64,000 nucleotides of DNA, from NCBI RefSeq assembly GCF_024521635.1, contig NW_026250431.1:62001-126000 (forward strand), given 5' to 3'. The notes beneath the pieces are model-generated. The model did not search any database, was not told the DNA's origin, and worked only from the letters and a program-made list of their open reading frames with translations. The translations under genes were made by a program, and so were the position numbers. Positions 26,773-64,000 of this stretch are shown piece by piece (position 1 is the stretch's first letter; each line of letters begins with the position of its first letter). The DNA comes from Tricharina praecox. Taxonomy: Eukaryota.

Positions 26773-27473
26773 TACTCGGTGACCTTGTGGATAGAAGACG
26801 TTGGGGAAAATAAGAAAGGTAAGATGCTATGAAGCGTGCATGATATTAGTAGGCTTCACAAAGACTAATGGAAAGATAGGCAGACTCTTCACACTTTGCA
26901 ACCAATCGACATCCCGCAACGCAGATCCGTACCTTCAACCACAACCCAGAACCCGCAATCCTCATCCACCTCTGACTCTCGTCTCTTCCTCTTTTTTTTC
27001 TTCTTCTTCTCACGAAAGTATCGAATCGGGGTTTTTCTGCGGCCGCAACACACATAGAACAGCTCAATCGAACGCATGTGTGTTTTTTCCGACTCACAGT
27101 CACTTACACCTCTTCATTTCTCTAATCTCCCTGAAGGCCTGACCATGGTTCAAGATTGGAACTGGAAGGTCGGCAAGGTCACCGAATCGGACCCTGCTCT
27201 ACATGCCATGCGTCCAGAGGATGCTCACACAGATGGCAATACGCCGAGGTCGAAGTAGTAGGCATAATATTGGCAAGTCACCGAATGCGAACAGTCTACC
27301 CGGCACATATACAACGTGAAACCAATTGCAATTGGATCGCACACAGTTACGCCAGTTCCCCCATACCGCAAACCCCTCAGAAAACAAAGAAGTCAAGCGG
27401 TCAGGAAAACGTCAGCGAACCACCCCCCGAACCTCCCCCCGTTGTCCCTGATCGTGTGCTTCAGCCGTGAGGC

Positions 27474-27706
27474 CTACTTCGTCACTCCCTCATTGCCTTT
27501 GTCGCCCTCGTCACCCTCGTCGCCCTGGGTAGTCACCATTTTCAGCAGGGTCCTAGCAGTTGGTTCTGGGTGGGGGGTGGGGGGTGGCGACTTACGCAAG
27601 GCAGGCAGCCTCCGCAGCTGCCGCCCTCGCCGCAGGAGCACCTCTTGGGGCCGCCGCATCCGCACATGCAGACACGGTCAACGAGCTCGATGGGTCCAGA
27701 GATCAT
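27474..27706 (-). CDS. Metallothionein-like small Cys-rich protein, copy A (53 aa; exons 27596-27706, 27474-27524)
   Basis: MISGPIELVDRVCMCGCGGPKRCSCGEGGSCGGCLPC|GDEGDEGDKGNEGVTK*; phase-0 GTAAGT...CAG intron. Confidence 0.8.
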
Positions 27707-28389
27707 CTTGTTTGTTGGTATTGTTGTTGTTAGGGACGTAGAAATCATTCGTTGGTTGGGTGCGTGGTATGAAGGTATCGAAATAGAGAACTTGTTGATT
27801 TGGATTCGATTGATTTGTTGTATGATGGTTTGAAGGTAGGCGACGTGAAGAAGGAAGGGTTGGGAATGCGGAGGTGGAGGGAATATTTAACCTATTTCGA
27901 GCGGCGAAAAATGAACGTAGAATGGTAGATCGGCGGCTGATTACCGAATGGAACACAAAGCCTACTAGCTTTTTTTTTGTTTCATCATTCACTGCGTGCG
28001 GCCTTATCTAGATCATGGCAATATGCACACGCCATTTCCTTGTACATTGCCCAACCCGACATCGAACAGTCCACAGTGGCTCGTGATGGCTGCCTTTCTT
28101 ACCCCCGTGCCAAAAACTGTCAGATGTAGACGTCCGATCGCTCGTGGAGTTCTGGCGCCGGAGGTGGCGCCGGAGCTTGTCCGAGTCATATCTGGTGCCG
28201 GACGACTGGCGACCGGATCTTAGGCGTCTGGTGCCCTGGGCGTGATGGGGTTTACGAGCAACCCGCCGACAGGACGAGCCTGGAGGCCATCTAGATAGCA
28301 CATGTATATGGAGGACCCACTGCCGCTGCGGAAGACAGACGATAATCAAGATCTAATACTCCTATATTTGACGAAAACAAAAGCCATCA

Positions 28390-28880
28390 CCACCCCTGGT
28401 GGGTGGCTTGGAAACCCAAGAGCTCAAAGGACTTGAACCCGATTTGAGCCTGGAGCTTTGCCTCAGCTCCTCTCGCCAGTTACGTGGCCTAGGTAGTAGA
28501 CTAATACCACTATGTTACGCGGGGGTTGTTTCCTTGTTGGGCGGAGAGCAATACTAGGGAACCAGTATCGAGCTCGTGGTCAGTGGTCGGTGCCAACAGC
28601 CATGTTGAAGCAGATTTTTAATCTACCAAATTCGAATGCGATGATAGTCAAACTAAAAAACAACGCCACCAGCACAAGCTGTGTATCACGTGGTAGTTTC
28701 TGCCGAGTGATATCGCATGCTCTACCCGTCTTGCCAAAACCCAAAAACCAAAACTATCACCCCGGTGGGGGGCTTGAAAACCCTAAGAGTTGACAGGGCT
28801 TTCACCCGGGTTTAAACCGGAGAAATTCCCTCAACTCCCCTCGCCGATTGCATAGCCTAGACCACTGGACCACGCGGGGT
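28390..28880 (-). other. Two degenerate tRNA-like or SINE-like copies (~28390-28525 and ~28755-28880)
   Basis: The 28755-28880 copy reads CCCCGCGTGGTCCAGTGGTCTAGG (A-box/D-arm-like)...GGGTTTTCAAGCCCCCACCGGGG (B-box-like, acceptor-stem-like closure) followed by a T-run. No clean anticodon arm. Confidence 0.35.
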
Positions 28881-29079
28881 TATTTCCGTGCTGGATATAT
28901 GAATTTGAACCTCGTAAAGTGGTGCATGCCAACCCGCGATGGATAATAACAACACAACGACGAAGCGACGTCCGTCAAATAAAATCTCCATCGCCTTGCC
29001 ACCGCTGCACCACATTTATCATAGTAGGCGGACTGTACGGCGTAAGTTTCTAAGTCTCCGGTGCTCCGCCTAGGCATCC

Positions 29080-29460
29080 GGAATACAAAGGAAAAAACAA
29101 AACTTCGAACAAAAGCTCGAACAAATTCCCCTTCCTCTCTCAGTATTTCGTCTCGCCTGGAGAGGCCATGGGTGGTGGCGTCGGTAGAGCAGAAGCCTTG
29201 GCCCCCCCTCCGCCACCATATCCCCTTCAATGTCCAGGCTGATAGCGTCTTGCGCTCTCCTCTCCTCTAGCTGTTCGGGTTCCCTCTGTGCCCGCTCGCA
29301 TTCTGAGGACTCGATGGCCACTGACCCTTCCTGAACCGGGAGAGCTAGTCTCCCTACATGTGTTGTTTCTAAGAACTTTAGGATTGCGTCGCTGCAGCTC
29401 TTGCCAGCAAATAGATGGTGAATCCTGAAGCGATGGGGCCAGGTGCTTACCAACGACGTC
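29080..29460 (-). mobile_element. LINE 3'-end relic, same family as 23365 and 50370
   Basis: RFRIHHLFAGKSCSDAILKFLETTHVGR...SECERAQRE aligns with the RDLFADERCS*AILDFLSTT...SEWERSERE relic at 50450-50600. Confidence 0.6.
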
Positions 29461-29833
29461 GATCATGTAAACCTCGAGTGAGATGGAGTGAAGAAGTCTG
29501 CAAAGTTCTTCCACGAGCAAATTGGACATTCTCTCTCCTCTAAAACCCCTCAGTTATTTCCGTCATGGAGTATCGGCCAGCTTTATCATGGCTGGAATGT
29601 CAGCCACTTCATCTGGTGTCTCATATTACCCGTGCTTGAAATTTTGTGGTTCGACTCACCCGCGCAAATATAACCATCACTCTGTTACCTACTTCACCAC
29701 CAACGCGCCCAAACCAAAACGTAAATGTCAAAAGTTGGGTTTGAACCGTAGCAAAAGAGCGTACTCCCCAAGGTTACTACACTTGTTACGGTGCGGACCT
29801 TGAATACCGGGAGCCGGTACCCTCACCACTTGG

Positions 29834-30138
29834 CAGTGTTCGACATAGACCAGACCGGTTGGCCGACCGGTTTGGTCGGTCGGGATAAAATTAAGCAGAC
29901 CCGACCTGGGCTTTAGTACATCGAGATATATCCTGACCGACCTGACCTTACCAGGCTCGATCGGCCTAGGTCGGCCGACGTCCGGTTAACTGTTAATCCT
30001 ATCAGCCGCAATGTTTTCCTTAGTTTCTGGCGCTCGTTATAGCATTTACGACGTCAAATGTTGTTTCTTAGCCTGACCTATCCCGACCAGACCAGACCAT
30101 GACCAAATTTGGTCGGGACTGGTCTATGTATAACACTG
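29834..30138. mobile_element. hAT-type MITE (305 bp), same family as 24602-24776
   Basis: Ends CAGTGTTCGACATAGACCAG and CTGGTCTATGTATAACACTG; shared GTCCCGACCAAATTTGG; TSD degraded. Confidence 0.8.
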
Positions 30139-30439
30139 CCCCCGGGGATACTCACAGCCAACGGCGATCTCAAGCTTGCATCAGAGCTGTATATTTATCA
30201 CCTGAAACGTCAGTACGATATTCGAGCAAAGCCATATCCGCACGACTAACCTTAGGATAGTCTCATCATCTACAGTGTGCTGACACGCAACCATCTGATT
30301 AATTTAAGCAGGGTACCAGGCGGCCTTGCTATGAAACTCCTATAGCTAGGTAGGCCGTATTCGTGCTCGATTCGTTCCGTATGAGCATCCGTTGTGTTTC
30401 GATGCAGTGCCATCAGAGTCCGATAACTTTGGCAGGCTG

Positions 30440-32465
30440 AGAGTCCCCACCATGCTACTGCATAATAAAGCTGCAGCTATGAACCGTGAAGGAGGGTAGA
30501 CCTTGTCGACATGTTAGAATTCTTGAAAATGGCCACCAGAGCATAGGATACTCACCACACTTCTCCGGCCCCAATCTTGGCTTTTCTCTATATTGTTCTT
30601 CAAATAGTTTTAGGCTAAGAAACGTCATCATCAGGCCTTCCGCTGCTTCAGCTTCAGGTTTGTTCTTGCCGACGGTTGCGGCGATGTACGTTCCGTGAAG
30701 GAGGGTAGACCTTATCGACATGTTAGTTTTCTTCACGAACGGGAAACCAAGCAGGGGGTGTTTACCACACTTCGACGGTCCCAATCGTGGCCTTTCCCCA
30801 TGCGAATCCTCAAGTAGATTTAGGCTAACAAGCGGTATCATCAGAGACCTTCCGCTGATCGAACTCCTGTTTTGTACTTGCGATCGACACCGGCTACTAT
30901 GATGCTAGATTTCTGCAAAAAGGCAACCTAACCATAGTATACGCACCACACTTCGCGGGTCGCAATCTTGGCCTTTCTCCATATGGTTCTTAAAATAGTT
31001 TTAGGCTAAGAATTTAAGAAACGTCATCATCAGTCCTTTAGCTGCTTGAGTTTCAGTTTTGTTCTTGCAGACGTTTGCGGCTATGAAAGTACCGTGAAAG
31101 TGAGTAGACCTTATCGACATATTAGTGGTTGCTTCAAGAACAGGCTTTCAAAACAAAAGATATTTACCATACTAGTACGCGGGCCATACTTTCAGGCACC
31201 CATCCATTTGGTTCTTCATGTAGGTTGAGGCTCAGAAGCGGCATGATGAGACCTTTAGCAGCTCGAGCTCCAGTTTCGTACTTGCAAGCGATAGCGGCTA
31301 CTATGTACCGTGAAGGAGGATAGACCTTACCGACGTTTTAGTTTTCTTCAAGAACGGGAAATCTAAGCAGAGGATATTTACCACACTTCACCGGCCATAA
31401 CTCCTTGCCTGGATCCTCGTGGTTCCCCACCGACTCTGACAGGTTCGGGTTCAGGAGTGCCGACGGAGTGTGGCATCTTTGGAGGGCTGAGTGTTCCCGT
31501 CATGCCACGGTATGTGGCTACAGCTATGGGCCGTGAAGGAGGATAGACCTTTCTGAAACGTTAGTACCTTTGGCAATACGGCCATTCAAAAAAGGATACT
31601 TACCACACTTCACCAGCCAGAGCTTCTCGCCCATCGCTATGCGATTCGTCACCTAACTGGGAGACAGGCAGGCTAGCCAGCGGAATCACCAATGTTTGGA
31701 AGCCGCTTCTCCAGTCATACTACTACTACGCAGGTATCTGCGGCCAAGGCAACGAAGGAGGGTAGACCTTTCCAGATGTTAGTAAGTGTCACGAACAGAT
31801 ACATTCGAAGATGAAGTTTCGACGTACCACACTTCGCCAGCGATGACTCCGCGTTTCTCTCGCAATAGGGATCTTCACCCCTCCCAAATCATCGGCGATT
31901 GAGAAGCGCCGGCATCTGACAGCTTTGACAGCATTCCAGTTACCGTAGTTGGCTACAACTATTGACTATGAAGGGGGTACACCTATTCACAGCATCAGTA
32001 GTTACCTCACTTCACAAGCCATAGCACTTCACCTTGCTAATTGCCGTGCTTCACGTATCTCGAACAGGTTCCGGCCAACGGTCGCTTCATCCGGCGTCAA
32101 CGGTAGACTCAGCTCCCATCTCATCGTCGTTGATGACTGCGACTGCGGGCTGCGGAGAAGGGTAGACCTGGCGGGAAGTTAGTAAACCATTCCAGGAGAC
32201 CGGACATTGATGGGACGCACCAAACTCCACAGCTAACCGCACCTAGACTTGCCCGATGAATCGGTAAAGATTCAAGATAGACGGCGATAAGTTTTAATCG
32301 CTTCCCTCGTAACGACTATTGATGGCTGTCAGTCAACGAGCCCGGATTGCCTACCGAATATCCGAACGAAGAAGGGTCAGACAGTTGATTCGAGGCTGGA
32401 CGGCCGAAACCGGCGCAGCGTGATGGTAAATGCGGATGTGGCGGAACGTACCTTTGAGACTTCAT
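30440..32465 (-). other. Tandem array of about 9 exon+intron units (~210-bp period) with no continuous reading frame; candidate spliced ncRNA or pseudogene
   Basis: Repeated GAAGTGTG|GT...CTAA...AAG|GTCTAYCCTCCTTCACGG. Acceptors at ~30501, 30710, 31109, 31325, 31548, 31767, 31982 and 32167. Introns ~55 nt, exons mostly 155-167 nt. Confidence 0.7.
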
Positions 32466-33286
32466 CTTGTTCTATTTTGTTGTTGTGAAGTGAAGTGGAG
32501 GGACGGTGAATCGTTGCAGGGGGCGGGGTGAGCGACCCGGAGACTCCCCTGTCGGATGGGCGCTATCCTGAGCTGAGCCGCATCACATTGCGCGGCACGT
32601 GTCCGTGACATCACGTTTTCAATTGAAGAAAGAAAAGCCAAATCATCGAGCACGTGTATCGAAAGCCTTTCCGCAAGATGTAGCGTATCCTGCTCATATC
32701 TGAATTTCATCATTGTTATTCTACGCTTGAAATAATATATCCGAGAAGTGGGATTGCAGAATATCACACAAACAGCCCCTTCATGTGTGAGACCTAATCT
32801 TGTGAGAGCAATGATGAACACGCTGAACTTTGAAGGCCCTTCTATATTTATATAGATAATATACCTGCTATTGAGAGACAGACTCGTCGGCGAGACCAGA
32901 CAGTAGACCAGACAGCAAGACATACGATATCTCAGTCCCGTCGGACATCCTTACAGTTACTGGTGGAATGATTCCGTCCAACACCCACCTCCGGACGTAC
33001 TAGACCGGACTAGGTATGTAGAAAACTGGATGTTGTCGACCCGGACCCAGGCAATGCGCCGAGGTCGACACAGAATCATACTGGCCAGTGGCCAGAAAGT
33101 CACGCAAGGCGAAAACACAGCGTGCAACGAAATTTTCAATTCCAATTCGATCGCCCACAGTCACACCGTCAGATTCCCCATGCCACCAACCCCTCCAAAG
33201 ACAAAGAACTCAAGCAGCCAGGAAAACTTTATCGTACCCCCCGAACCTCCCCCCTTGTCCGAGATGGTGTGTTTCAGCCGTTAGGC

Positions 33287-33515
33287 CTACTTCGTCTCGG
33301 CCTCATCGCCCTATTAAAGAAAACCATTTGGTCAGCGAACAAACGTTTTTCCCGACTCCTAGCGGTAGATTGGGGTTTGGGGTTGGGTGTAATGGGGAGC
33401 TTACGCAAGGAAGGCAGCCTCCGCAGCCGCAACCATCGCCGCAGCCGCACTTCTGGGGTCCGCCGCAGCCGCACATGCAGACGCGGTCAACGAGTTCGAT
33501 GGGTCCGGAGAGCAT
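33287..33515 (-). CDS. Metallothionein-like protein, copy B (44 aa; exons 33405-33515, 33287-33310)
   Basis: MLSGPIELVDRVCMCGCGGPQKCGCGDGCGCGGCLPC|GDEAETK*; GTAAGC...CTGAC...TAG intron; TATAAAA about 155 nt upstream. Confidence 0.85.
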
Positions 33516-34219
33516 CTTGCCGGTTGGTGTTGTTAGAGACGTAGGATTAATTTGTTGGGAGCGTTGTACGGTTGTATCGAACTCGAGGACTTGTTGTTTT
33601 GTGTGAGTGATAGTTTGGTTAGCCGGTGAGGTGAAGAAGGAAAGTTGGGAGTTGGGAGTTGGGGGTATTTTATACCTGTTTTTGAGCGGCGAAAAATGAA
33701 CAAAGAAATCTAGGTCGCCGACGGATAATAGAAGGACAGTAAAGTGTACTGATGAAACCAATGCGGGTCAAGGCAGATATGGTCGCATCGAGTGATGTCG
33801 AAAGCATTCGGAGGCACATACTTGAACACAATTTCCCCGGGTAAACCTGTATCAGTCGGTGGACTTCCGGTTGCTAGATGTCCAGTATCTCTTGCACATT
33901 ATCATCAGTTGCCGACGCTCGTATACGACCTCTGCACCAGAGAGAGACCCTACATCCAGTCCGTCCAAAGGATGATGCCAGTGTTCTCCATTGCCCGGCA
34001 TTGGTGAAACAAAGTGCCACTCTTTTCAGCACTTACCGCACCAAGAAATTGAACTTCCTCCAGTAATAGTTGTTAAAGTTTGGGCGTCCGAAAGCGGTCG
34101 ATAACGGCCGCAGCAACTGGGTGTCCGGAAGCGGTTGATGACAACCACAGCAATGTTGAAAGAGTTGGGCGTCCGGGATGTCTCCCAGACGGTCGCAGCA
34201 ATTCTGGCAGACAACAGAA

Positions 34220-34390
34220 ATGTTGACCGCCGACTGCAATGTTGGCCGCCGACTGCAATGTAGGCCGCCGACTGCAATGTTGGCCGCCGGCTGCAATGTT
34301 GGCGGAAGGCTGCAATGTTTGCAGACGGAAGTAATATTGGCGCAAGGCAGCAATGTTGGCGGAAGGCAGTAATGTTTGCAGACAGCAATA
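34220..34390. repeat. 19-bp tandem repeat (GCCGCCGACTGCAATGTTG-like, about 9 copies), probably a TE subterminal relic
   Basis: Directly visible; lies in a segment absent from the sister metallothionein unit. Confidence 0.8.
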
Positions 34391-35347
34391 ATTTTGGTAG
34401 AGAATGTATGGGCGCGCGCCGTCATCTGTATGCTGTACCAAGACCTATGGGAGGGACTTCAGAGTCCAGATTCTGTGTATAGAGGACCTCCAGTCCGGCA
34501 AGACTGGAGAACAAGAGAACATTTATCAACCATTACATCTTCTTCTATCTAACACTCTTTTATTACCGTACTTTTATACAAATGTCGCCCTTATTATGTA
34601 CCATTTTTCGCTGTACTTGTACCAGTGTCGACTGCAGTTTTGTCACAGCAGATCTGAGCGAGTGTGCGAGAGAGATCGAGAAGTTATTGCTTAGATACAG
34701 AAGAGAATGAGAATGAACGGGCAACAGAGAGAGTACTATATAAACAGATACAGAGAAAGAAAGAAACTAAATTCCGTCATTTCCATCCTCCGAGGTTGTG
34801 GCATGATATCTCCCCTCATGATATCACAGTTAATCATTCATCATTGAGTCGGTCAACGAGTCGCTCATTGAGTCGATCATTGAGTCGATCACTCGCCAAT
34901 CACTCGCCGGCCTTGATGCTCGAGGATATTAAACAGGATTCCTTCACCGACATGCGGTCCGTTCCGTTGGACCTCACTGGCAGACAAGGTAGGTACTCCA
35001 TTTCACTCACACTTCCGGACGGACTGGATGTATGTAGTGCAGTCCCTTCCACGAGTCCGAACTATGTAGAACGCTGGATCATGATCATTGATGTCCCCAC
35101 ACGGGCCCGGGCAATACGCAGGGATCGAAACAGTAGGTATCATAGTACATACTAGCCAGAAAGTCACAGAAGGCGAAAACACAGTGTACAACGAAATTTC
35201 AATTCCAATTCGATCGCACAGTTACGCCAGCTCCCCCACTTTGCCAACCCCTCCGAAAACAAAGAGATCAAACAGCCAGGAAAACATCGGCGAACCTCCC
35301 ATCTCCCATCTCCCATCTCCCGAGGTCGTGTGCTTCAGCCGTGAGGC

Positions 35348-35584
35348 CTACTTCGTCTCACCCATGTCGCACTTGTCGCACTTGTCGCCCTTGTCGCCCT
35401 CGTCGCCCTCGTCGCTTTGGGTCGTCACCATTGTCAGCATAGTCTTAGCAGTTAGATGTGGATGGTGACGTACGCAAGGCAGGTAGCCTCCACAGCCGCA
35501 GCCCTCGCCGCAGGCGCACTTCTTGGGGCCGCCGGAGCCGCACATGCAGACGCGGTTGACGAGCTCGGTGGGGTTTGAAATCAT
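35348..35584 (-). CDS. Metallothionein-like protein, copy C (acceptor mutated; 78 aa if the intron is read through)
   Basis: MISNPTELVNRVCMCGSGGPKKCACGEGCGCGGYLPC... Acceptor CAG|GGC of copies A and D is CAAAGC here, two Cys are lost, and the intron is open in frame. Confidence 0.6.
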   Translation of the reverse strand: MISNPTELVNRVCMCGSGGPKKCACGEGCGCGGYLPCVRHHPHLTAKTMLTMVTTQSDEGDEGDKGDKCDKCDMGETK

Positions 35585-36329
35585 CTTGATGTTGGTTGGT
35601 GGTGTTAGAGACGTGGGGTTGATTTGTTGGGGAGGTGATATGGAGGTATCGTATGGATGGATCGTATCGAAACGGAGGACTTGTTGATTCGATTAATGAT
35701 GATTTGGTGTGTGAGGTGAAGAAGGAAAGTTTAGATCTTGCGAGTTGAGAGGTATTTTTATAACTAATTCGAGCGGCGAAATACGAACATAGAAAGCTAG
35801 GTCGTCCAGCGGATAATAGAAGGGTCCACCAAATCCGCTAGCAAAACCAATGTGGGTCGAGGCGGACATGTTGAAAACGAGTGATGTGAAAAGCATTCAC
35901 GTGTACTTGAACATAATTTCCCCAGCGGAACCTGTATCTGTAGGTGAATCCTCTCCCGTTAGGTCTCCAGCATCGTATCTACATCCTCTTCACCTCCAGG
36001 TGCTCGTACACGACCTCTGCACCTAAGCGAGACGCTACATGTAGTCCGTCAGTTTGCCGGACGGGGTTAGACTGTAGTCCAGCATGAGCTTTTCAGCACT
36101 TACACCACCAATTGAGCTTCGTCCAGTCCCAGCCGCTCCACTATCTTTTTTCAGTACCGGCAATGGCGGCGTGATCTTCATGTTTCATCCAGTGCACTCA
36201 GGTACTATATTCATACTTCACTTACCTCCCTCAACCACTACATGCAACCACTGATAAAATGCGCAGAAGTATCTCTCTTGTACTCTCACACAAATATCGC
36301 ATTATTACCGTTTTTCGCTGTACTTTTAC

Positions 36330-36478: not shown

Positions 36479-36713
36479 GGTGATGTCTACGCGGACACGG
36501 GCGATACACCGGGGTCGTTACAGAAAAATACGTGGCAAGTCACCGAATGCGAACACAGTATATAACGAAACCGCAATTCCAATTCGATCGCACAGTTACA
36601 CCAGCTCCCCCATGCCTATACCCCTCCGAAAACAAAGAGACCAAATAGCCAGGAAAACTTCAGCGAACCCCCCATCTCCCATCTCCCCAGGTCGTGTGCT
36701 TCAGCCGTGAGGC

Positions 36714-36931
36714 CTACTTCGTCTCGCCCATGTCACCCTTGTCGCCCTTGTCGCCCTGGGTAGTCACCACTGTCAGCATGGTCCTATGTAGTAGTCGGTT
36801 ATGGGTGGGTGGTGACGTACGCAAGGCAGGCAGCTTCCGCAGCCGCAGCCCTCGCCGCAGGCGCACTTCTTGGGGCCGCCGCAGCCGCACATGCAGACAC
36901 GATTGGCGAGCTCGGAGGGGTTCGAAATCAT
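36714..36931 (-). CDS. Metallothionein-like protein, copy D (50 aa; exons 36821-36931, 36714-36755)
   Basis: MISNPSELANRVCMCGCGGPKKCACGEGCGCGSCLPC|GDKGDKGDMGETK*; GTACGT...CTGAC...CAG intron. Confidence 0.85.
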
Positions 36932-39900
36932 CTTGATGTTGGTTGGTGTTGTTTGAGACGTAAGGTTGATTTGTTGGGGGTGTGGTGTGGTTGTTTAGAA
37001 ACGGAGGACTTATTGTTTCGTGTGAGTGATGCTTTCGTGGGTAGGTGAGGTGAAGAAGAAGAGGTAAGAGTTGGAAGTTGGGGGGATTATCACGGTTTCA
37101 GGCGGCGAAAAGAGAACATAGAAAGTCTAGGGCGCCAGCAGATAAACTAGCGAAATCAATATGGGTCGAGGCAGATTGGGTATCATCGAGTGATATAAAA
37201 AGCATTCGAGCGTACTCGAACCCACCTGTATCAGTGGGTAAATTCCTGCTGGCTACCTAGATCTCCGGCATAGCTTCAGTATTCTCATAGCTTGTAGGCG
37301 CTCGTTCATAACCTCTGAAGCAGCAAGATGACTCGTTTTCTCTCGTATCACCGAGGGCTTTAAAAGTACCAGGTGGAGACGATAATAGATGGTACCTACG
37401 AGGATAGCAACAACCAAGTCAGGACATCGAGGGATACCGCTGTGTAGAACTTCTACGGTTTTACTCCGCGTGCTCATGCACTGCCATAAACTTTGCAACC
37501 TCCCGGACGTGTAGCGGAAAGCCACCAGGACATTAGGATTTCTAGGTATTCTCTAGTGTTAGCTCTGGCTTCCTCCCTTACACAGTAAAAAGCCATGAAT
37601 GAGCGGCCGCAGCTCCCACAATGAGATGGAATTCATACAACCTCTGCAGAAATAACCTGCGAGACAATTGATCGGTTATGATCTGTTGTATGCGCCACAA
37701 AGCCACACGAAGCCACAGCGCCACCGTTAGGCGCCGAAAGCCACTTTCCGCCAAGGAACGCTATCATGAGCCACACGAAGCCACAGAAGGCCACGATGCC
37801 TCACCAAGCGGCACTCGCTGCAATGACGTAAAGGTTTGATGTCTTGGCTCCCAGCTGTCGCGTGTTCGGAGCTCGCGTTTGACGGTTGTCACGGAAGCAC
37901 GACTTGCAGCATCACCACACTCTCTCTAAACCTTTGACTACGGGCTTATCGACGGCGATTACGGACAGTCCTACGATGGCAAAAGGCAAAAGGCACGCGA
38001 GATGAAACACAAATTTATCCATGAGAATCCAAATTGCGTGTGAATGAAGAGCAGCAGCGGTGGGTGGCCGTTCAGTTTCAATCGTCTCACTTCATCGCGT
38101 GAAGATCGGCGACATGCGGAGGTTTGCTAATGGTGATAGTCATGATAGATATCGGATAGGGCTCCGGCGAGGCGAAGCGAGCGAGTCGGTCGGCCGGCCG
38201 GGCGGCTGCGACGGGTCCCCCCACAAACAAACAAACGAATCGATCATGACCGTGCGCGAGCGCGATCTTGCAGATTCGTCAGGAGATGGATGTTTGGCGC
38301 GACCGGTTATCGACATTCCTGCACCAAGAGCACGGACGGGATCACGACTAACGGGCTGCCCCACGTCCTGCGGCCTGCGGGGACTGGCGAGGACTGGCGA
38401 GGATGAGGTGGTTGTCTGGGGATTCACGGATGGTGGGGGTTGATGAGGCGTTTGGAGGAGTACTTATGTCAATGGAGCGTGGTGGTGTATCTCTACGGCC
38501 GAATAAAGAGCATTACAAAGTGAGTTGAGATCGAGAGCATACGGAGTCGATGGGAAGAAGTGGTTTCGTTGGATAACGCGGCGAAATATAATCGCCGTCG
38601 CCATCGTGGCCCCGAAGCGTTGCGCGTTCGATGCGATGGATCCGTTTGCAAGCTCCCACGTGGGTTGAAGGGTTCAACGGTGCTCAGGGGAAGGAAACAC
38701 GCGCGTTCCCGCACGGTGCTGCCGGATTGAAACGCGACCGGCTTGTTTGTGGGTGATGTTATCGAGCGGCCGGATCGCGATGGTTTAAGCGGGACGTGCT
38801 GAGGCTGTGCGTAAACAGCGGGTGGGGGCCGTTGGTGGGGGCGGTGCGGAGCGATGCGCTGAAACAGTGGCGGGCGGGAGCACTTGCTTGTTTCCCTTGT
38901 TCGCCAGTCCGTCGTCGCGTGTTTCCGGTCCAGAGTGGGTCGCATACCCGGCAGATTCGACGTCCCTTGCGCGCCCTGTTCTGTTCCGTGGCTGGGCCGT
39001 GATGTCCTCAGAGATGGAGATGCGCCCTCGGTCTGCGCCTTGCACCGCTTCTTCTTTGCTTCCTCGAGCTCCGGCCAATCCGACTGAGTGCAATGGCATT
39101 CTGCAGCGCAGAGTAGCGCAGACATCCGCTGCGACGAGTGTTCTTCGTCATCATCTTCTGCTTCACCTTCTTCTTCTTCTGCCCATGTCGTGTCGCTCTT
39201 TGCCACTCTCTCGCACCGTGCGCATTCTTCTTCTGCGTTGTCCGAACTGCATGCACGCGGGTTTTGCATAAGTAGTAGTTATACCTAACTCACCGTGCGT
39301 GCTCGACTCGCCCACTGTCACCATCGCTAGTTCCCGTGCATCGCCGTCGCTGAATTGCGCCTCTCTCCCATTCATTGATTCCCGTCCGTGTCCGAGCTGT
39401 GTTGCGCAGTGAGAGGCGGATGCTCGTTCGTCGTTCGAATAACAGCAAAAAAGTAAATAACTTCTTCCATACGATGCGCCTTCATGACTTATCCGTCGGC
39501 TATCCCTTTCGCTGCTAGTTGTTGTCGTTATAAAGCCAGGTGTGCGGCCGCGGCTTTATGCAGTAGCCAACTCTGTAAGCCTATCCGAACCCCATCATCC
39601 CCATCCATCGTCCACCACTCAAAGCGATCCCAATCCGCGAACTCCACATCCACCGCTACAACCACCAACCACCAACCACAACCACCAACCTCCACCACCA
39701 CTCCCCACCCTCAACGCTCCCCTCCGTGATGGCGATATAGTCAGCACCGACTTCCTCCCCCGACTTGCGCCCTCCCGCTACTTCAAACTACACCCGCTCC
39801 CAAATACCTAGCCGCTGCCTCCGCCCCTCCCCCTTACATTCTACATTCCTCTCGCAATCCGCACGTCCCCTTCCCCCACCCCAACAGCTCTCCCCTACGA

Positions 39901-45252: not shown

Positions 45253-46179
45253 TACTGTTGATGTTGCTGCTGTTGCTGGTAGTGGTAGTGGTGGAGGAGG
45301 AGGACTGCGGAGGACAGGACAGTCAGTTCACGGCTGGAATATTGGGGAGTGCTGGGGACTTACGAGCGGTAATTGAGTGGTAAGATGAAGAGGTGGAGTG
45401 AAGATATTGCTTTGGAGCAGAGGTTACGGTGGTGGAGCAGAGAGTCGAGCCGTAGGAGGACTGGGGAGAGCAGGGAGTCAGTTAGCAGCTTGGATACTGG
45501 AGATTACTGGAGAGTACTGGGGACTTGCTCGTGCGGTGAATGAGTGGTCAGATGAAGAGATTGAGTGTATATATTGCCGTGGAGCAGAAACTACAGTGGT
45601 GAGGAAGAGTCGAGGTGGACGAGGAGGGAACTCGATAGTGCTTTGACAAAGGCCGGTGGTGGGTACGGATCACGGTGTGATGGAGGGTGTGAGTACGGCT
45701 TTGTGGAAGCGGGTGTCGGTGTTCGGAGATGTAGAGATGTAGTGATGTAGAGATATAGCGGTAGTAATGGAAGTGATGGAAGTTCGAGTAGATTGACGGA
45801 TTGGAAGAGGGAGAGGGACAGTGGTGGGGATAGGAATCGACGGGCAGAAGGAGGGTTGGGGACGATTTTGGTGCAGTCGTAGGTCACAGATGAAAGCCGT
45901 CGCTGTAGCTGTTCGTAACGGGCGTGCTGCAGCGGAGAACCACGGATGTAGCGGACGACTGCAATGCACTCGGGGCAATCTCAAACAATGGCTCTCAATT
46001 TCATCCAGTAGGCTATGGAAAAAATCGCCTCTTAAGCATTCACAGATAAATTAGGTCCCATATGACAAGTAGTACATCTTTTCCACCACATCAACCGCAT
46101 CAACTCATATCAAAAGTCCTCCTTCACGCAACTGCCCCCGCCATCCCCATCGTCGTCTCCGGCAGGAACGCACCGCCTC

Positions 46180-51104: not shown

Positions 51105-53331
51105 TCACAAAGCATCCCGTCTCTCCCTTAGCCCAGCGTACTCCTTCCCCACTATCGGCTCCCCGACTGCATCAGCCGAGAACGCCAGATGTCCCGTTCC
51201 CCCATCCGCGAAGCCAACACTGACATCCCCCCACTGCAACGGCTTCGATATGATCTCTTCCCCCACGGTCTCGTTCGCGCTGGGTGCATGGCAAGCCGCG
51301 CTGATGGCCGCCGAGCAGCCGCTGGGAATCGGCATGTCGTGGCGGTATTTCCGTAAACCCATGACGATGATTGCGACTACCGCTAGAGCTCCCATCGCGA
51401 GCGCTAGGATTATAGCCATAGTGCTGAAGCACACCTCCGAGCGTGTGTAGATTTCATCGTGTTACGGCCTACCCGGTATATGTAAAGGATATGTATCGAT
51501 TCGTGCGAAGAATAGCGCCTGGGACGTGAGCCAGTGGAGGATCCCCGAGAAGATCATAAGAGTGAGGGCGAAGCGGTACGGCAGTTGGAGGTAGTATGTG
51601 CTTCGCTGACCATCGCGCGGGCTGGTGACCCGCAGTGGCTTTCGAGAGTTGGCATAACTGTTCCATTCGAGGGCCGACAGCATGATGGTAAAAAGCGCAT
51701 TGTACATTAGGTAGAGGAGGGAAAGGATTGTCTGAGGTAAGTTGGCAAGGAGAACAGCCTCAGTTAGGCTCGGGACCCAGTCGGAATTCGGGTTGCTGTT
51801 CAGTTGGATTATGGATTCGAAACTGGCCTGCCCAAACCCGCGATTCCAAATATCTTTGAGTGTATTGAAAAGGTGGGCCATTATATCCGCCGTGACAGCT
51901 CGATGTAATAAATATGCCACAGCGGCGAGACTGATGCACATGCAGGACACATTGACAATCCACCGCCTGAGACTGACGACATTCCACCAGTGGTATGAGC
52001 GGCGTTTCCACGGCTGCGGCCGCAAATCTCCGCTGTTCCACGGTATTCCCGCTTTCCGCTGAGCCGCGATGTACTGCTTGTCGGCGTAGCATATCCCAGT
52101 AGTGTTCGGATCCGGCTTCAAAAGGAAACTCTGGATTGCGTCGCCGATGGTAACCAGCGGGATGAAGTTTCGTTCGAAAAGAATCAGGGTGATGCAGGCA
52201 ACTTTAACGGCACTACACACGATAACGATGGCGAGTATCAACGTGGAGAACTGCAGCTTGCAAGATTCGTCCACGACTTCGGCACGGCATTCCTTGACCG
52301 GAACGACCTGTCCTTCTAGATTTCGAACCCTCCACTCTCCACCCGATCGAACAACATCCATTCTTTTGTTACTTTCTTTAGGATGCATGAAGTCAGTCGA
52401 AAGAAACCTTACTGGATCGGAGAGCCATCGTTCGACAGTGAAAGTCTCCATCACGGGAAAGCCATTCAATAACCCTTCGGTACTGTTTCCCTGTAATACC
52501 ACTGCGACATTTCTGTTTCCGGAGACAAATGTTTTGTCGTAGTCTCTGAAACATTCTCGAGACGAGATCACCGTCCAGTTTCTAGCATGGGCGAGAAATT
52601 CTATCCACGGCTGCAGCGCGAAGTTTCCTATGTCCGTGGTGTTGAGGGGCATAGGCCAAATATTAGGATTGGTGAAATTGATCGTTGGGGGTTCCGACGA
52701 AAACATATTCTCCAGAACAACAGCCACCGAATAATATTTCAATGCTATCGTTGTGAACACGGCACTATTGTATCTGCGCAATATGCATGTCAGTACTCGC
52801 AGACCTACGCCTGTAATTGATGACCGAGACTTACAACAAGTGCAGCGGTACCGACGTGACTGCGAGGAACCACCACAGTACCATCCTTCTCCACTTGACT
52901 CTCCACAGATTCCTGACGCTCGGCATGCCGATGTCGAGCCACTCTCCCTTCGCGTGGGCTCGATCGACCTCCTCGCGAGTAGGGCTCGTCAAGCACTGCT
53001 GCGCATAGTTGCTGCCGCTCAATGCCAACGTACCCAGCGCATTGATCAGGGCATGAATCCACACCGACAGCGTCTTCGCTTCTGCGCAGGAGCCCTTGTA
53101 GACAGTCCCCAGTCCATCGTGGACCGAAAACATCTTCACCACCCAGATAGTGATTAACAGATTGAGCAGAAACACCATCGACACGCCGGCGATGCACCAG
53201 ATCAATCCTATCCGCCAGCCCGAGGTCGGTTCTCGTGATAGCGCAGCCCGCTTACACAGCTTGCCATCGTCAGAGTCGGGTGAGTATTTCGTCGAACGGC
53301 CGCTATCACCTCGTATCCTACATACCGCCAT
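51105..53331 (-). CDS. DUF6536-like fungal multi-pass membrane protein, with an in-frame TAA at 51462-51464
   Basis: GWRIG...NLLITIW...GSC...HALINALGTLALSGSNYAQQCLTSPTREEVDRAHAKGEWLDIG..SVRNL...SVPLHLL|YNSAVF; LANLPQ..LS; QRSTYYLQLPYRF; MPIPSGCSAAISAACH. Intron ~52773-52834. Start codon uncertain. Confidence 0.8.
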
Positions 53332-55614
53332 TCCCGCCGATTTTTTATTTTTTTTTGCATCCGCAACCCCCCCCCCCTTCCCCCCTCCCCCTCCCCTCCT
53401 GACCGGATGCTTACGGTTGCAATTCAACCGCCTCGGTATCCATAAGTTGATCGTTCGAATGGTCCACCGTCGGGTGCACGGCGTCAGTTTCTTCATAACC
53501 ATGTTGCTGTGCTCGCGTCGACGGGAGGTGATACATTGAGGGGCGGAATTGCTTAGGCAGCTTTTTTCGGGTTCCGTGTAGAGGTATTTGAACACAGCGA
53601 GGCAGCGGGCTCCATGCTGCCTAAAGGTACTGGTGGAGTACCCAATGTGCTCGTCGTCGCCGGCATCAGAACAACCAATTGCGTTACTCACAATTCTGAT
53701 AGTGGCGGTGGGGGTTGGGGGAAGGTAGGGTGAGGAGACATTCTCACTGGCGTTCCCACTTGCTCAAAGTCACCGCCAAGCATGCCGCCTTTAAGCCATC
53801 TTTTCAGCCCTCGATCGTCCACATTCACGTCTAGTTTCACCAACCTGCCGACTCTCGGTCGCCCAGCATCGAGACGGCCGCTAACGACCGCCTTCTCGGA
53901 ACTATCATTTTTCATTCTCCCGATTGCAATGGTCATGCGAGGAGAGTAGAAAGCGGGGAGGGTGTGCGTGGGGGAGATGTGCATGGTGTTTTCCCACCAA
54001 CCTGCTTCCAGATTGCTCTATCGTTCGACACATTCAGGCCACGGTAATTTTCCCTGCCTCGGCTCAGGCTGCGGTGACTCGCAAAGGAAAGATTCTTGTA
54101 ATTTGCCTTCTGGAAGAGTTGCTTGTTGTATCTTCATTGCTGTTGGACAGGAATAGGATATCGGTATTTACTCGTAGGTAGTATGCAATTCCAATGACCA
54201 CTATGCTCAGCGTGCTCTTCGCTTGCGGGAGTGCATGAGGGAGAATATCAATTTATTGTCACACAGCGTTGTTGGGGTTTTGTGTCGGTGATATCGAGTG
54301 ATGGATGAACATTGGTAGATGTCTCATGTAGCCATTCTTGCAGACCGAGAATGATCCCCTTTCATCCTCGGGTAGTCTCTCGGGGCACTGTATGGCGGGG
54401 CTCAATTCTTCACGAAAGCGAAATAAACCACCATCATCCCTCCTCGTTCGACTATCGGCCGGAATCCAATGTGCCGTTGAATTAGGCACACCCGATCGCT
54501 GCTAGCACCACGCCGCACAGGATGCCATGTGCTTCCGCCGTCCACCATGGTCGCCAGTTCCGTCCCTAACGGTGTTCTCCGCGCACGAAGTCACCTGACG
54601 AGTACCTGTATGGCGTTTATATAGCACGTGTGTATTGTGTAGCCAAATTGGTAAGATGGTCGCGACGAGGGAGGAAGGCGGAACTTCGGTGGGCGGAGGG
54701 GAGGGGTTTGGACGATCCGACACGAGTGGAAAACATCATCGCCACTAGGTATCCTATTGACCGTGTCTCGGTTTGGTCAGCTCAACTACGATTGCCACAG
54801 CGGGGGGAGACCGGGAAATAAGTGTAGATATCCTACTCACCTATGCTTTCCTTCCGTGGCTAGGAATGAACCTTTCCTACTTCCATGGTTTATCGGCCTC
54901 ACGACTCCCCCCGCCAATCTGCCCCTCTGGTAACAGATCTTTCCCATCATATTGTCCGAGAAAAGCCCGCCGCTACAGCTGTCATTCACTGCCATCAAGA
55001 GAGTGAGCTGAAATAAGCTTCACTTAACTTCTAACAGGCTCTTCAGATGTTGGAATCTTGTGGTTCCGAGGCAACCACAGGCAGTAACGGGGAAATGTGC
55101 CTTTGGATCGCGTCGTGGGCGATGGAAAGAGGAGTTGGAGGATATGTGGAACAAGGACGTTCCGGAGACAGTATTGCCGCCGTTACTATCGCAGCGACGA
55201 GTGAGGGAGTGAGGAATTGGTTGAACGCCGCGGAAGGCGGTCGGAGGCAGAGAGCGGCCAATGCGGCTCTGCAATAGAGTCAACTTGGCGCGCTAAATGA
55301 CTCTAGTGTATCCTCAGGCTGATCTCACCAAAGCTGGGCTCAGGGCACGGCACATCCCAGCGAGCCATAACTATCGAGCACAGACCGCCGCAAGTTGACA
55401 GGCGTTGCGAGTCTGCACTTGAAGACATCATCGTCGTCGCCGAGCAGCCAGCCAGTCTTAAAGTCGACCGCCCGCATGCCCTCCAGCTCTTAGGTACGCT
55501 TCTCATCACTGTCTTCCACCTCCACACGACATCCATCTACACCGTCCGACTACTCCCGCTCCGTAATAGCCTCTCGGGAATCCCATTCACTCGTTTGCTC
55601 GCCCGCTAACTCGA

Positions 55615-60500: not shown

Positions 60501-61557
60501 GAAAATAGAGACGCTGATCTCGGCAGCCCGCCAATCTGCCGATTACGGGATTAAGTTCTTCCAGAACCTGCAGTCGTTCCGTCTCGACGATCTGAGCGCC
60601 GATCAGAAGGCGGACATCGTCATCACCAACAACTTGGAGGTCCAGGCCAGCCTGCAGAAGTTGACTAAGCTCACCGAGCAGTACGTCGGCACGGGCAGCA
60701 AGATCACGGATGTCAAGAAGGATATCGGTGAGCATGTTGACAGCGAGTTGGGTAAGGCTGCCGCGGCTATCGAGGCTGCCGCTGCTCGTCTGGCGCAGCT
60801 TCAGAATAAGTCGAAGGATGGCTATTCGACCTACGAGTTGAGGATCCATGAGTAAGAAGCATCTCCTCCTCCACTGTCGGTCCAGAAATTAACATCGCTC
60901 TGATAGGTCTATTCTGGAAGCCGCTATCGCCGTCACCAATGCTATCGCTCAACTCATCAAGGCCGCTACGATATCGCAGCAAGAGATTGTGGCCAAGGGC
61001 AAAGGAGGAAGTTCGCGCGCGGCTTTCTACAAGCGCAACAACCGGTGGACGGAAGGTCTCATCTCGGCTTCGAAGGCTGTCGCTTCGTCGACGAACATGT
61101 TGATCGAGACTGCCGACGGTGTCATCAGCGGACGCAACAAGCTCGAGCAGATGATCGTCGCATCGAACGAAGTTGCAGCCTCGACGGCGCAGTTGGTAGC
61201 CGCATCGCGTGTCAAGGCGGACTTCATGTCCAAATCGCAAGAGCGGCTGGAGGGCGCGTCCAAGGCCGTCACCTACGCCTGCAAATCGCTCGTTCGCCAG
61301 GTCCAGAGTATCATCGCTGCAAAGAACCGTGAGGAGGGTGACGATGACAACTGGGCGGAACTCAGCGGCCACGAGTTCAAGGTCCAAGAGATGGAGCAGC
61401 AAGTACGTTCCCTGCTTTCTTTACCTACCTACCGCTTGCTGTCCGCTAACCAGCTCGATAGGTCGAAATCCTCCAGCTCGAGAACAAGCTCAACGCGGCC
61501 CGAATGCGGCTGGGAGAGATGCGCAAGCACTCGTATGCCCAGCAGGACGAGGACTAG
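57577..61557 (+). CDS. SLA2: Endocytic adaptor Sla2/End4 (ANTH, coiled coil, I/LWEQ-THATCH), about 12 introns
   Basis: IKKATNIEETAPKRKHVRSCIVYTWDHKSS; YHPEFNGLFEYEEYISLK; FYKRNNRWTEGLISASKAVA; EFKVQEMEQQVEILQLENKL. Confidence 0.97.
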
Positions 61558-64000
61558 TGAGGCAAAATCAGAGTCTGTTGTGCAAGTAGATGGATGGGAT
61601 GGCATGGATGGCATGGATTGGGTTGTGTTTCTTGCTTTGCTTTCAGGCGTGTTTCTCACATTACTTCTTCTTTTAATCTGGCCGGGATATTGTTTGGGTG
61701 CTTTGAAGTCCTATGCCCTGTCGCGAGTGTGTACATACTCGTATCGAACCGGCCGTTATTTAAGTGCTTATATATCTTGGTTGCTCTGATCTCCGTGTTG
61801 TATGGAGTGGCTGCACCGCGATATCGGTGACGGGTTGCCATGCAAAATGTACTGTGCGGTGCGCGTTGGGATATTATTCTCGGGGTCACTCGGTGATGTT
61901 CCTAAGATTACTCGAGAGGTAAAAGAGCAAAGAAAAAAAGATATTTGAAGAATTGTCGGTACCATGAATCGAACATGGGTCTAAGCTGATTCATGAATCC
62001 ACAAAGCTTCGTACTAACCACTATACTATACCGACTTGAGATATCAGCAACTCATCGTAACACATAAGATACAAGTTACTAAATTTTGCACACTAGAGTT
62101 GCCGGTGACTTCACCTATTACTGTCGCTGGACTGGGATGTTAGATTACTCTCACAAGTACTTGGTCCACGCCTTTTTATTGCTATGAATCTCCAGCCTGG
62201 AAGTTTACGTGAAGGCATCAGATGGAATTCTCAGATCTGCTATTATAGGTAGGTAGCATGAGCCGGTCGATACCAGGAATCCAGGATTGTTTTGCACAAG
62301 CTACCTATCGAGAGTGTTCTGGAGCGCGGAGGGAAGTTGGATTCCCTGGTCGAGAGCACGGTGGAGCCAGCACGTAGGCAGTATTATGCCGCAGGAGAAT
62401 CGACGCGTAATGTGTTGTAAGTACATGCCTTGAGACAGAACTTTTGCTTTTGTATTGTATGTAGATTTCACATACTGGTGCTTGTACTCTAGCATGCCTT
62501 GGGTAAGTACTCTCGATGGCATATGGCGCAGTATTCACCATTATTGTCACCGGACTGTGATTTTTGGTTGCTCTCTCAAGTAGGTATCCACGCCTTTTTA
62601 ATGCCATGAATCTCTCACACTACACCAAAATATCTTCAGGCACAATAGGCGATGAACAAGACCATCCTCCTATTCAGATCCGATATGCTAAAGAAAAAAT
62701 AACAAAAATCACTCCACATGTAAGCCACTAAAAATCTAAAACTTTCCTCTCCCTCCGTCTTCGTCAAATACGAACCCGCGAACCCCACCACTATGTCCTC
62801 GTCGAGTAACGCCTGCGCTCTCTCTTGAGGAACACTACTCGCCATTTCTTCACTTCCCGGAGATCTCCTACCCTACCTACGCTCTCTCTTTGAGAAGCGC
62901 GGCTCGCCATTTCTTCACTCCTCGAAGATCTCCTCCCCTGCCTCTGCTTTATTTGTCCATGCGGAAAGAATACTTGCTCTGGTTGGGTGGCAGCGACGCC
63001 AATCTGGCGCCGCATAGCAAAGGATGTTATTATCCCTGAAACAATCATCAGCCGTTTGAACCTTAAACAACAACAGGTTTTACATACCTTTGCAAAACCC
63101 TTCACTGTGAGCAGGGCCGAAGCCCACCCCAGGTACATATTGTGGGGGGCCGAAGCTCTCCCCAAGTAATCATTGTGATGGCCGAAGCCCTCCGTAATCC
63201 GCCGAAATCAAATAAAGGAACGACAAGGGACACACAGTTGAAAGGCACCAGGACCGGTGTTGGAGTGGCGGCTCCAATGCGAGCCACCACTGCAACGTAA
63301 TAGACGCTATTGCAATCAGTAGGAGGACGGCGGGATAGGCAGGCACGGAGGGAAGAACTTACAGCCCACGGTTCAACAGCCGCCAAGAAACCCTGGTTGT
63401 AGCTCTTGTCGGAAGCCCACGCCTTCGAAGACCCACGCTTCGGCCCCCGTATTCGAATACGGACGCTTCGGCGTTCGACCGACATCGGCCGAACCAACTC
63501 TTATCGGCGGATGACTTCCGAATAGAACCATCCACCGATAAAAGGAGGTTCCGGCGGCCGTTGAGCCGGTCAGAGGGGGCGAAATCCAATGTTGATCCTG
63601 GAACTGATGTTGGCCGGCCTCACATTGGTTGCTGGGCGTGGGCTGTCGGCAGGAACCATCATATGAGATGGTAAATGAATGGGAGGGATTATAGGGTGTG
63701 TTGATGTTGTGGTGTTTCGGAGTGTCGGATTTTGTTGTGGTTAAGTTGGAAGAAGAACATGATGTAGGAAGGAGAAGATGATGTAGGAAGGAGAAGATGA
63801 TGTAGGAAGGAGAGTAAAGAAAGAAGCGTGGGGAGTGGGCACCATGGGGGTTTTATGGGGCAGCGAGGTAGTTATCCGGACGGCGGCGGACGACAGAAAC
63901 GATCAAAACAAAACCAAAATGAACAGTCAAAACAAGCAAGTCTAAGCAGAGCAGCATCCGGATCCACAACTGCTCTCAACATCTTCACAGAAACGATCAA

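Follow-up and report, generated by a model that had tools for sequence, protein, structure and literature searches.

What is made from a tandem array of short exon-intron units that is annotated as a hypothetical protein and meets stops in every reading frame? The question is raised by an array on the minus strand, at about 30250-32483, of a 64-kb window from Tricharina praecox (NCBI RefSeq assembly GCF_024521635.1, contig NW_026250431.1, positions 62,001 to 126,000 of the forward strand). The window denotes this whole stretch of 64,000 nucleotides, and all positions are counted from its first letter. An original prediction, made from the letters alone, had taken the locus for a non-coding array in which splicing would complete a conserved hairpin, that is, for a polycistronic structured RNA of the microRNA-like (milRNA) precursor or small nucleolar RNA (snoRNA) kind, with a decayed repeat-protein gene as the alternative. 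In the present analysis the locus was found to yield a spliced RNA of at least 1.7 kb from the minus strand, from which 10-11 canonical short introns are removed. This multi-intron RNA has no coding capacity and is mis-annotated as a hypothetical protein, and among its units only the splice signals and the sequence flanking the junctions are conserved. On balance, we favor the view that the locus is a functional long non-coding RNA (lncRNA) gene, in which the sequence assembled at the exon junctions is a repeated module and the RNA a multivalent platform or decoy. That the RNA is spliced and non-coding is held to be far more certain than this mode of action.

Alignment of the minus strand at 30300-32390 recovered ten units (U0-U9), each about 185-223 bp long, with a mean column identity of 50%, in agreement with the exon-intron units of about 210 bp that had been foreseen. 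Each unit starts with a pyrimidine-rich exon start, which reads GTCTACCCTCCTTCACGG in the best copies, and closes with GAAGTGTG. The short intron behind it has GT as donor, AG as acceptor and a branch site of the CTAAC type. When up to three mismatches were allowed, the 19-nt exon-start motif was matched six times in the window, each time inside the array, against a shuffle expectation of 0.01. The most recent visible event is a duplication of two units, such that U5-U6 resemble U7-U8 at a spacing of 399-400 bp. Indices of the kind used for repeat-induced point mutation are borderline (0.98 and 1.05 in the array vs 0.70 and 1.15 in the window).

The spliced form was read from the contigs of two small public runs, X1 and X2, which come from two different studies. 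The contigs of both runs match the window with no mismatch, and intact spliced contigs of 1.4-1.7 kb are present; one X1 contig of 1684 nt links all exons with no other letters, and the exon model has the same length, 1684 nt (Table 1). Compared with the window, the contigs skip 54, 55, 56, 55, 60, 50, 53 and 101 nt, and each skipped stretch reads CT..AC on the plus strand and hence GT..AG when read on the minus strand. An additional compound skip of 123 nt, with 14 letters between its sides, is found in U6 and corresponds to two introns, one of 58 nt and an additional one of 51 nt, on either side of a 17-nt micro-exon. The listed joints were seen nine times out of nine in X1 and eight times out of nine in X2. 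A tenth joint was deduced from a loose end at 30249, since its letters are those of 30170-30199; therefore, one more intron of 49 nt, and a transcript continuing downstream, are indicated. All ten modelled introns start with GT and end with AG, and branch sites of the form CTAAC, CTAAA, CTAAT or CTGAT were found. A GTAC.. sequence similar to the donor behind the U6 micro-exon also follows the exon-start element of U5, where it is unused as a donor.

Each of the two runs contains about half of the words of the stretch; X1 contains 0.55 of those sampled, and exon-only 31-mers would give about 0.52 by our own arithmetic. Since the word share is close to the exon-only value, the introns and the upstream flank are missing from the run, and for this reason we infer that the contigs represent cDNA and not genomic DNA. 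Three metatranscriptome runs from another study contained next to none of the words of the stretch. Thus, the spliced contigs of two runs, free of mismatches, bear out the transcription and splicing of the locus that had been predicted. The agreement in detail was partial. Among the nine homologous intron positions, seven have their joints exactly at the predicted sites; at the U1/U2 joint the donor (32032) lies 27 nt upstream of the homologous donor, and the U6/U7 position (30906-30946) is unspliced, its acceptor and exon start being lost and a continuous contig piece (30764-31042) running across it. The transcript also runs past both ends of the predicted span of 30440-32465.

Can this RNA be read as a message? 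Many stops are present in each of the three frames of the spliced 1684-nt RNA. The first AUG (32465) opens only 11 aa, and the longest open reading frame (ORF) that starts with AUG in the spliced RNA has 51 aa. The stops said to interrupt all three frames of exons 4 and 5 (31828-31982 and 31604-31767) were confirmed. No codon periodicity was detected between units, the mismatches at the three codon positions being 9/6/8 for U6, 17/11/17 for U5 and 16/9/11 for U7, and pairwise indels between units are not multiples of three. A Pfam search with seven array ORF translations gave no family at E <= 0.001 (the sole match listed reached 13.1 bits, E = 0.1), and five ORFs downstream of the array gave nothing at threshold. 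The absence of a usable ORF, the flat distribution of mismatches over codon positions and the lack of a protein homologue (see below) all agree with a non-coding transcript, as had been claimed.

The proteins annotated at this locus were examined in the light of the spliced contigs. When 5.8 billion proteins were searched by words, with a read-through ORF of 149 aa as the query, one protein was returned, P0001, which is the NCBI hypothetical protein BZA05DRAFT_421631 of Tricharina praecox (217 aa). With P0001 as the query, a second model was obtained, P0004 (BZA05DRAFT_422978, 210 aa), which lies on another contig; these were two of 872 candidates, both derived from array DNA. The mapped pieces of P0001 and P0004 all agree at 100% with translations of the window. 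Residues 1-136 are common to the two models, which then use different exons and end differently; both omit whole transcribed exons and place introns within stretches that are continuous in the contigs. They are gene-caller constructs. The two models sit on two contigs (527 kb and 59 kb), and both map at 100% to 30250-32483; therefore, either the genome carries the locus in duplicate or the assembly contains it twice.

A HMMER search of 1.84 billion representatives gave one further match, P0002, an unnamed run-derived ORF of nine 54-aa repeats, whose best single domain scored 7 bits with an i-Evalue of about 5e5. P0002 and P0003, both 54-aa tandem-repeat ORFs, were rejected as homologues, as their full-sequence E of 2.1e-9 is a match of about 7 bits summed over 7-9 near-identical repeats and is ascribed to chance. 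A longer search with the U4 ORF yielded nothing among 61 candidates. No protein homologue was thus found outside the array's own gene models, neither among the 1.84 billion representatives nor in the collection of 5.8 billion proteins, and no intact protein-coding homologue that could account for the junctions appeared in either search. It is hardly credible, then, that the locus is a true coding gene as annotated, with a product of 217 or 210 aa, or that it carries several translated micro-ORFs spanning the junctions. Two NCBI hypothetical proteins do derive from array DNA, and three junction-spanning AUG-ORFs of 40-51 aa have in common a ...KCGL(P/S)SFT... stretch. However, P0001 and P0004 contradict one another as well as the spliced contigs and are without homologues, and the micro-ORFs have many AUGs far upstream of them and occur at only three of seven homologous junctions, in a junction frame that varies by unit.

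If no protein is kept, which parts of the unit are? Conservation was expressed as mean pairwise identity among the units and set against shuffled baselines. It can be seen that, first, the identity is highest in the first 18 nt of the exon (0.78, shuffled 0.54) and in its last 10 nt (0.78, shuffled 0.52). Secondly, it is 0.70 in the first 6 nt of the intron and 0.70 in its last 20 nt, from the branch site to AG (shuffled 0.51). The exon interior (0.60, shuffled 0.54) and the intron interior (0.59, shuffled 0.50) are close to random. The introns as such are therefore not the best-conserved part of the unit, which had been the claim; the peaks are the exon ends and the branch-to-AG segment. In the junction alignment, 20 of the 22 invariant columns fall in the donor, the branch site, the acceptor or the adjoining exon ends, and eight of nine homologous introns retain a working donor, branch site and acceptor. 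At the exon ends, what is kept is ~10 nt before the intron, ending in GAAGTGTG, and ~18 nt after it, GTCTACCCTCCTTCACGG; the 17-nt micro-exon of U6 preserves the exon-start element alone, between two introns. Since the interiors are near random and yet eight of nine introns are functional, we argue for selection on splicing and on a junction sequence of about 26 nt.

These results suggest how a functional lncRNA gene may have arisen and may work. One exon-intron module would have been duplicated repeatedly in tandem to give the gene, with selection maintaining both the splicing of the single modules and the element of ~26 nt that is assembled at the exon junction. The mature RNA would then present about seven junction elements, some 155-165 nt apart, with spacers drifting freely between them. 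Most probably the transcript would act as a multivalent platform or decoy, with each element as a binding module for a protein or for another RNA, and the complementary arms described below may present the element in the loop of a hairpin. A bolder version, in which each of about seven introns has to be removed before a ~26-nt element, perhaps displayed in a hairpin loop, comes into being, and in which the splicing-assembled multivalent RNA serves as a decoy or scaffold for a protein or small RNA or is diced into small RNAs, and may act together with the neighboring metallothionein cluster, is conceivable and, in our opinion, rather doubtful.

The hairpin was at the center of the original prediction. 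The exon ends across eight introns are indeed complementary, with 13, 14, 13, 14, 13, 9, 11 and 12 of 17 pairs; 73.3% of the cells are paired, vs 31.0-48.1% after a shift of the 3' arm by 1-3 columns, and this part of the prediction held. In addition, 74-nt windows at six homologous junctions fold into one common hairpin. When the 3' letters were re-dealt among the units, pairing was 71.7 +/- 1.9%, and the observed 73.3% was reached by 120 of 500 shuffles. The covariation score of 0.294 compared with 0.266 +/- 0.034 in the shuffles (reached by 103 of 500), and seven pairs were changed on both sides vs 4.2 +/- 1.5 (33 of 500), both measures being of low power with eight sequences. Because re-dealt letters pair nearly as well, the pairing is a property of the ancestral unit kept by sequence conservation, and compensation was not demonstrated; the variant that had been put forward as compensatory is without statistical support. 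The stability of the junction windows was unremarkable (z from -2.55 to +1.35 vs dinucleotide shuffles), and in the minimum free energy fold of the whole 1684-nt RNA (span <= 300) a hairpin with at least 14 enclosing pairs formed at three of 11 junctions. With no significant covariation, such z-scores and so few hairpins in the whole fold, the claim of a selected structure that depends on splicing was not upheld.

The same data bear on the possibility that the RNA is a small-RNA precursor, whose junction hairpins would be diced to milRNA-like products or whose exons would release snoRNA-sized RNAs. We consider this quite improbable. The complementary exon ends at eight junctions and the common hairpin at six of them are what it would call for, but the stem is short and mismatched, with neither significant covariation nor exceptional stability. 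Dicer substrates are expected to be longer than 9-14 of 17 pairs, and no stable hairpin of Dicer length was found at the junctions. As for snoRNAs, no Rfam family reached its gathering score in the array, and the introns were likewise without a match. The best sub-threshold match, snoR29 at 30567-30639, may be counted in favor; however, its 26.5 bits fall short of the gathering score, 50 (E = 0.91), and it is driven by TGATGA, a motif found in three of ten units (U6-U8), and no D box with a terminal stem was seen by eye in the unit alignment. RNAalifold gave no consensus structure for the exon interiors (-1.23 kcal/mol, four pairs), and the idea of a snoRNA-sized repeat gained no support. Moreover, the spliced contigs of 1.4-1.7 kb are intact. 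A precedent for small RNAs from spliced hairpins exists in plants, where precursors of microRNAs (miRNAs) can be split by an intron, according to PMC11706861.

Several points weigh against a functional lncRNA built on junction elements. The results with re-dealt letters, with the stability of the junction windows and with the fold of the whole RNA, given above, are three of them. The RNA label of X1 and X2 is a guess, and no run recorded as RNA contains the stretch; the contigs carry no information on strand, level or transcript ends. The identities are those between units of a single array; the anchoring of the alignment partly favors higher identity near splice sites, and short-tract gene conversion could have contributed to it. 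Elsewhere in the window there is no site of at least 13 nt complementary to the junction element; one complementary 12-mer is present at 46128, where 0.16 were expected. A single metagenome scan with the exon-start motif detected one locus, with one match and no array around it; this lone match was taken as chance. Finally, exon lengths are 2 mod 3 in seven of ten cases, for which we estimate a chance of about 0.06 with units that are not independent; such a pattern may be a weak vestige of former coding capacity.

The last point bears on the view that the locus is a transcribed and spliced relic without function, left by a decayed gene for a protein with repeats of about 52 residues whose frame was lost. 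In its favor, one frame is open in some of the exons, and the peptides are alike (that of U8 in frame 1, with 51 aa, is similar to stretches of U5, U6 and U7); the exon lengths just mentioned may be counted with this, and the U6/U7 intron has decayed and the U1/U2 donor has shifted. However, exons of 2 mod 3 rotate the frame from unit to unit, so that they do not fit a repeat protein, and with the present splice sites the repeat is never readable in one frame. Differences between units show no excess at third positions, and neither the 1.84 billion representatives nor the 5.8-billion-protein collection holds a homologue. A neutral sequence is not expected to keep GT, branch site and AG in eight of nine introns when the interiors have fallen to 0.59-0.60 against a baseline of 0.50-0.54. 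A functionless relic therefore seems unlikely to us, and a functional lncRNA with the junction element as its module remains the reading we prefer.

How does such an RNA compare with known systems? Host genes of snoRNAs of the UHG/GAS5 type are multi-exon, spliced and without an ORF, carry the snoRNAs in their introns, and depend more on splicing than on exon sequence. Like them, the array is multi-exon, spliced and ORF-less, with a repeated exon-intron architecture; unlike them, it has introns of 49-101 nt whose interiors show 0.59 identity and give no Rfam match. NORAD and the meiRNA of S. pombe act as decoy RNAs. Xist is a lncRNA with tandem repeat modules, among them repeat A (PMC8786293). 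Xist repeat A, NORAD and meiRNA share with the array RNA that they are non-coding, that a short conserved core is repeated about 7-8 times between poorly conserved spacers, and that the repeat is the likely functional module. In contrast to all three, each module of the array carries a spliceosomal intron, and its core is assembled by splicing from two exon ends. The host of the array is a Pezizomycete fungus, and no homology is claimed or expected.

A parallel in architecture is offered by the intron-split miRNA precursors of plants (miR444 nat-miRNAs; Solanaceae), in which an intron lies between the hairpin arms and the compact hairpin forms only after splicing (PMC11706861). In the array, too, an intron separates complementary arms. 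The plant precursors are single hairpins with documented 21-nt products, whereas the array has about seven tandem copies with 9-14 of 17 pairs and no significant covariation. Taken together, the array is not a member of the snoRNA, snoRNA-host, milRNA or repeat-protein families, each of which fails in a defining feature that was tested. Among the matches listed for the literature on Tricharina praecox, no title concerned the array locus, and among those listed for spliced tandem-repeat lncRNAs in filamentous fungi no such array was apparent from the listed entries.

The array lies between the first and the second of four metallothionein-like (MT) genes on the minus strand (ATGs at 27706, 33515, 35584 and 36931), and its predicted position inside a metallothionein cluster was thereby confirmed. 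Each of the four genes has a conserved promoter/5' block, and an intron with conserved phase follows the Cys-rich exon. An origin of the array from an MT gene, or a promoter shared with one, was considered and rejected: the 450 nt upstream of the array scored 26, 22, 23 and 19 against the four MT upstream regions, where shuffles scored about 19.6 on average and 5, 30, 16 and 126 of 200 shuffles reached the observed values; MT1 against MT2 scored 126. Apart from position, no link between array and metallothionein genes was found when promoter similarity was tested. Upstream of the array, MAFFT placed a TTTCG...GCTCGA stretch at 32590-32650 (minus strand) against the TTTCGCCGCTCGAA block that is conserved in the MT promoters. 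This alignment does not count as evidence; since the stretch is not significant in local alignment, it is only a lead for shared regulation.

Table 1. Exons and introns of the spliced RNA and the metallothionein-like genes around it.
Feature	Position	Strand	Length	Remarks
Exon 1	32452..32483	-		contig starts near 32482; 5' end unmapped; first AUG at 32465, 11-codon ORF
Intron 1	32351..32451	-	101 nt	GTACGT..TAG; outside the repeat pattern; joint in X1 only
Exon 2	32221..32350	-	130 nt	degenerate unit U0
Intron 2	32168..32220	-	53 nt	GTGCGT..ACTAAC..CAG
Exon 3	32033..32167	-	135 nt	unit U1; donor 27 nt upstream of homologous position
Intron 3	31983..32032	-	50 nt	GTGAAG..CTGAT..TAG
Exon 4	31828..31982	-	155 nt	unit U2; all three frames stopped
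Intron 4	31768..31827	-	60 nt	
Exon 5	31604..31767	-	164 nt	unit U3; all three frames stopped
Intron 5	31549..31603	-	55 nt	GTAAGT..ACTAAC..AAG
Exon 6	31382..31548	-	167 nt	unit U4
Intron 6	31326..31381	-	56 nt	
Exon 7	31168..31325	-	158 nt	unit U5
Intron 7	31110..31167	-	58 nt	
Micro-exon	31093..31109	-	17 nt	conserved exon-start element of U6 alone
Extra intron	31042..31092	-	51 nt	GTACTT..CAG; within U6
Exon 9	30766..31041	-	276 nt	rest of U6 and U7; holds unspliced decayed intron relic 30906-30946
Intron 9	30711..30765	-	55 nt	
Exon 10	30556..30710	-	155 nt	unit U8
Intron 10	30502..30555	-	54 nt	
Exon 11	30251..30501	-	251 nt	unit U9 and unique sequence
Intron 11	30202..30250	-	49 nt	GTTAGT..ACTGAC..CAG; deduced from loose end at 30249
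Exon 12, start	30156..30201	-		downstream extension of 44 nt or more in X1 and 255 nt or more in X2; 3' end unmapped
Metallothionein-like paralogues	27300-27960, 33130-33830, 35180-35920, 36550-37220	-		e.g. ...DRVCMCGCGGPKRCSCGEGGSCGGC...

Other features of the window were recorded along with the array. Just downstream of the mapped transcript, at 29840-30110, a patch rich in GACC/GGTC with a (GACCA)4 run and inverted copies (ggtcgg / ccgacc) is possibly a short foldback element. Two to three copies of an element of about 130 nt, ...caccccTGGTGGG..ggaaacccaagag.., parts of which are tRNA-like, lie in the interval that separates the array from the first MT gene (28370-28520, 28745-28890 and 29715-29800); a tRNA scan of 27900-30300 with ARAGORN gave none. 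A 19-nt tandem repeat with higher orders of 38 and 57 nt, about ten copies in all, lies at 34207-34397, just upstream of the second MT-like gene region. The only family in the window at gathering score is a tRNA gene at 61954-62035 (minus strand, Rfam 56.5 bits), whose length of 82 nt suggests an intron. Two coding fragments were noticed, one for a DUF6536 protein at 52831-53691 on the minus strand (E = 1.5e-50) and one with an I/LWEQ domain of the Sla2/talin type at 60989-61789 on the plus strand (E = 6.1e-49). A scan for bacterial promoters and terminators found nothing; its models are bacterial and do not apply to a fungus.

What does the locus mean for fungal genomes? It shows concretely how a gene caller can impose two different ORFs on a multi-intron transcript that is non-coding, and this bears on the counts of fungal 'orphan' proteins. 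Few fungal lncRNAs have a recognizable functional anatomy; in the array RNA the modules are conserved at the splice signals and at the ~26-nt junction flanks only, and this clear module anatomy offers a direct experimental handle. If the junction element is functional, splicing would create the active sites of a non-coding RNA; and if the RNA is indeed a multivalent one assembled by splicing, the removal of introns would itself build the functional sites of a fungal lncRNA.

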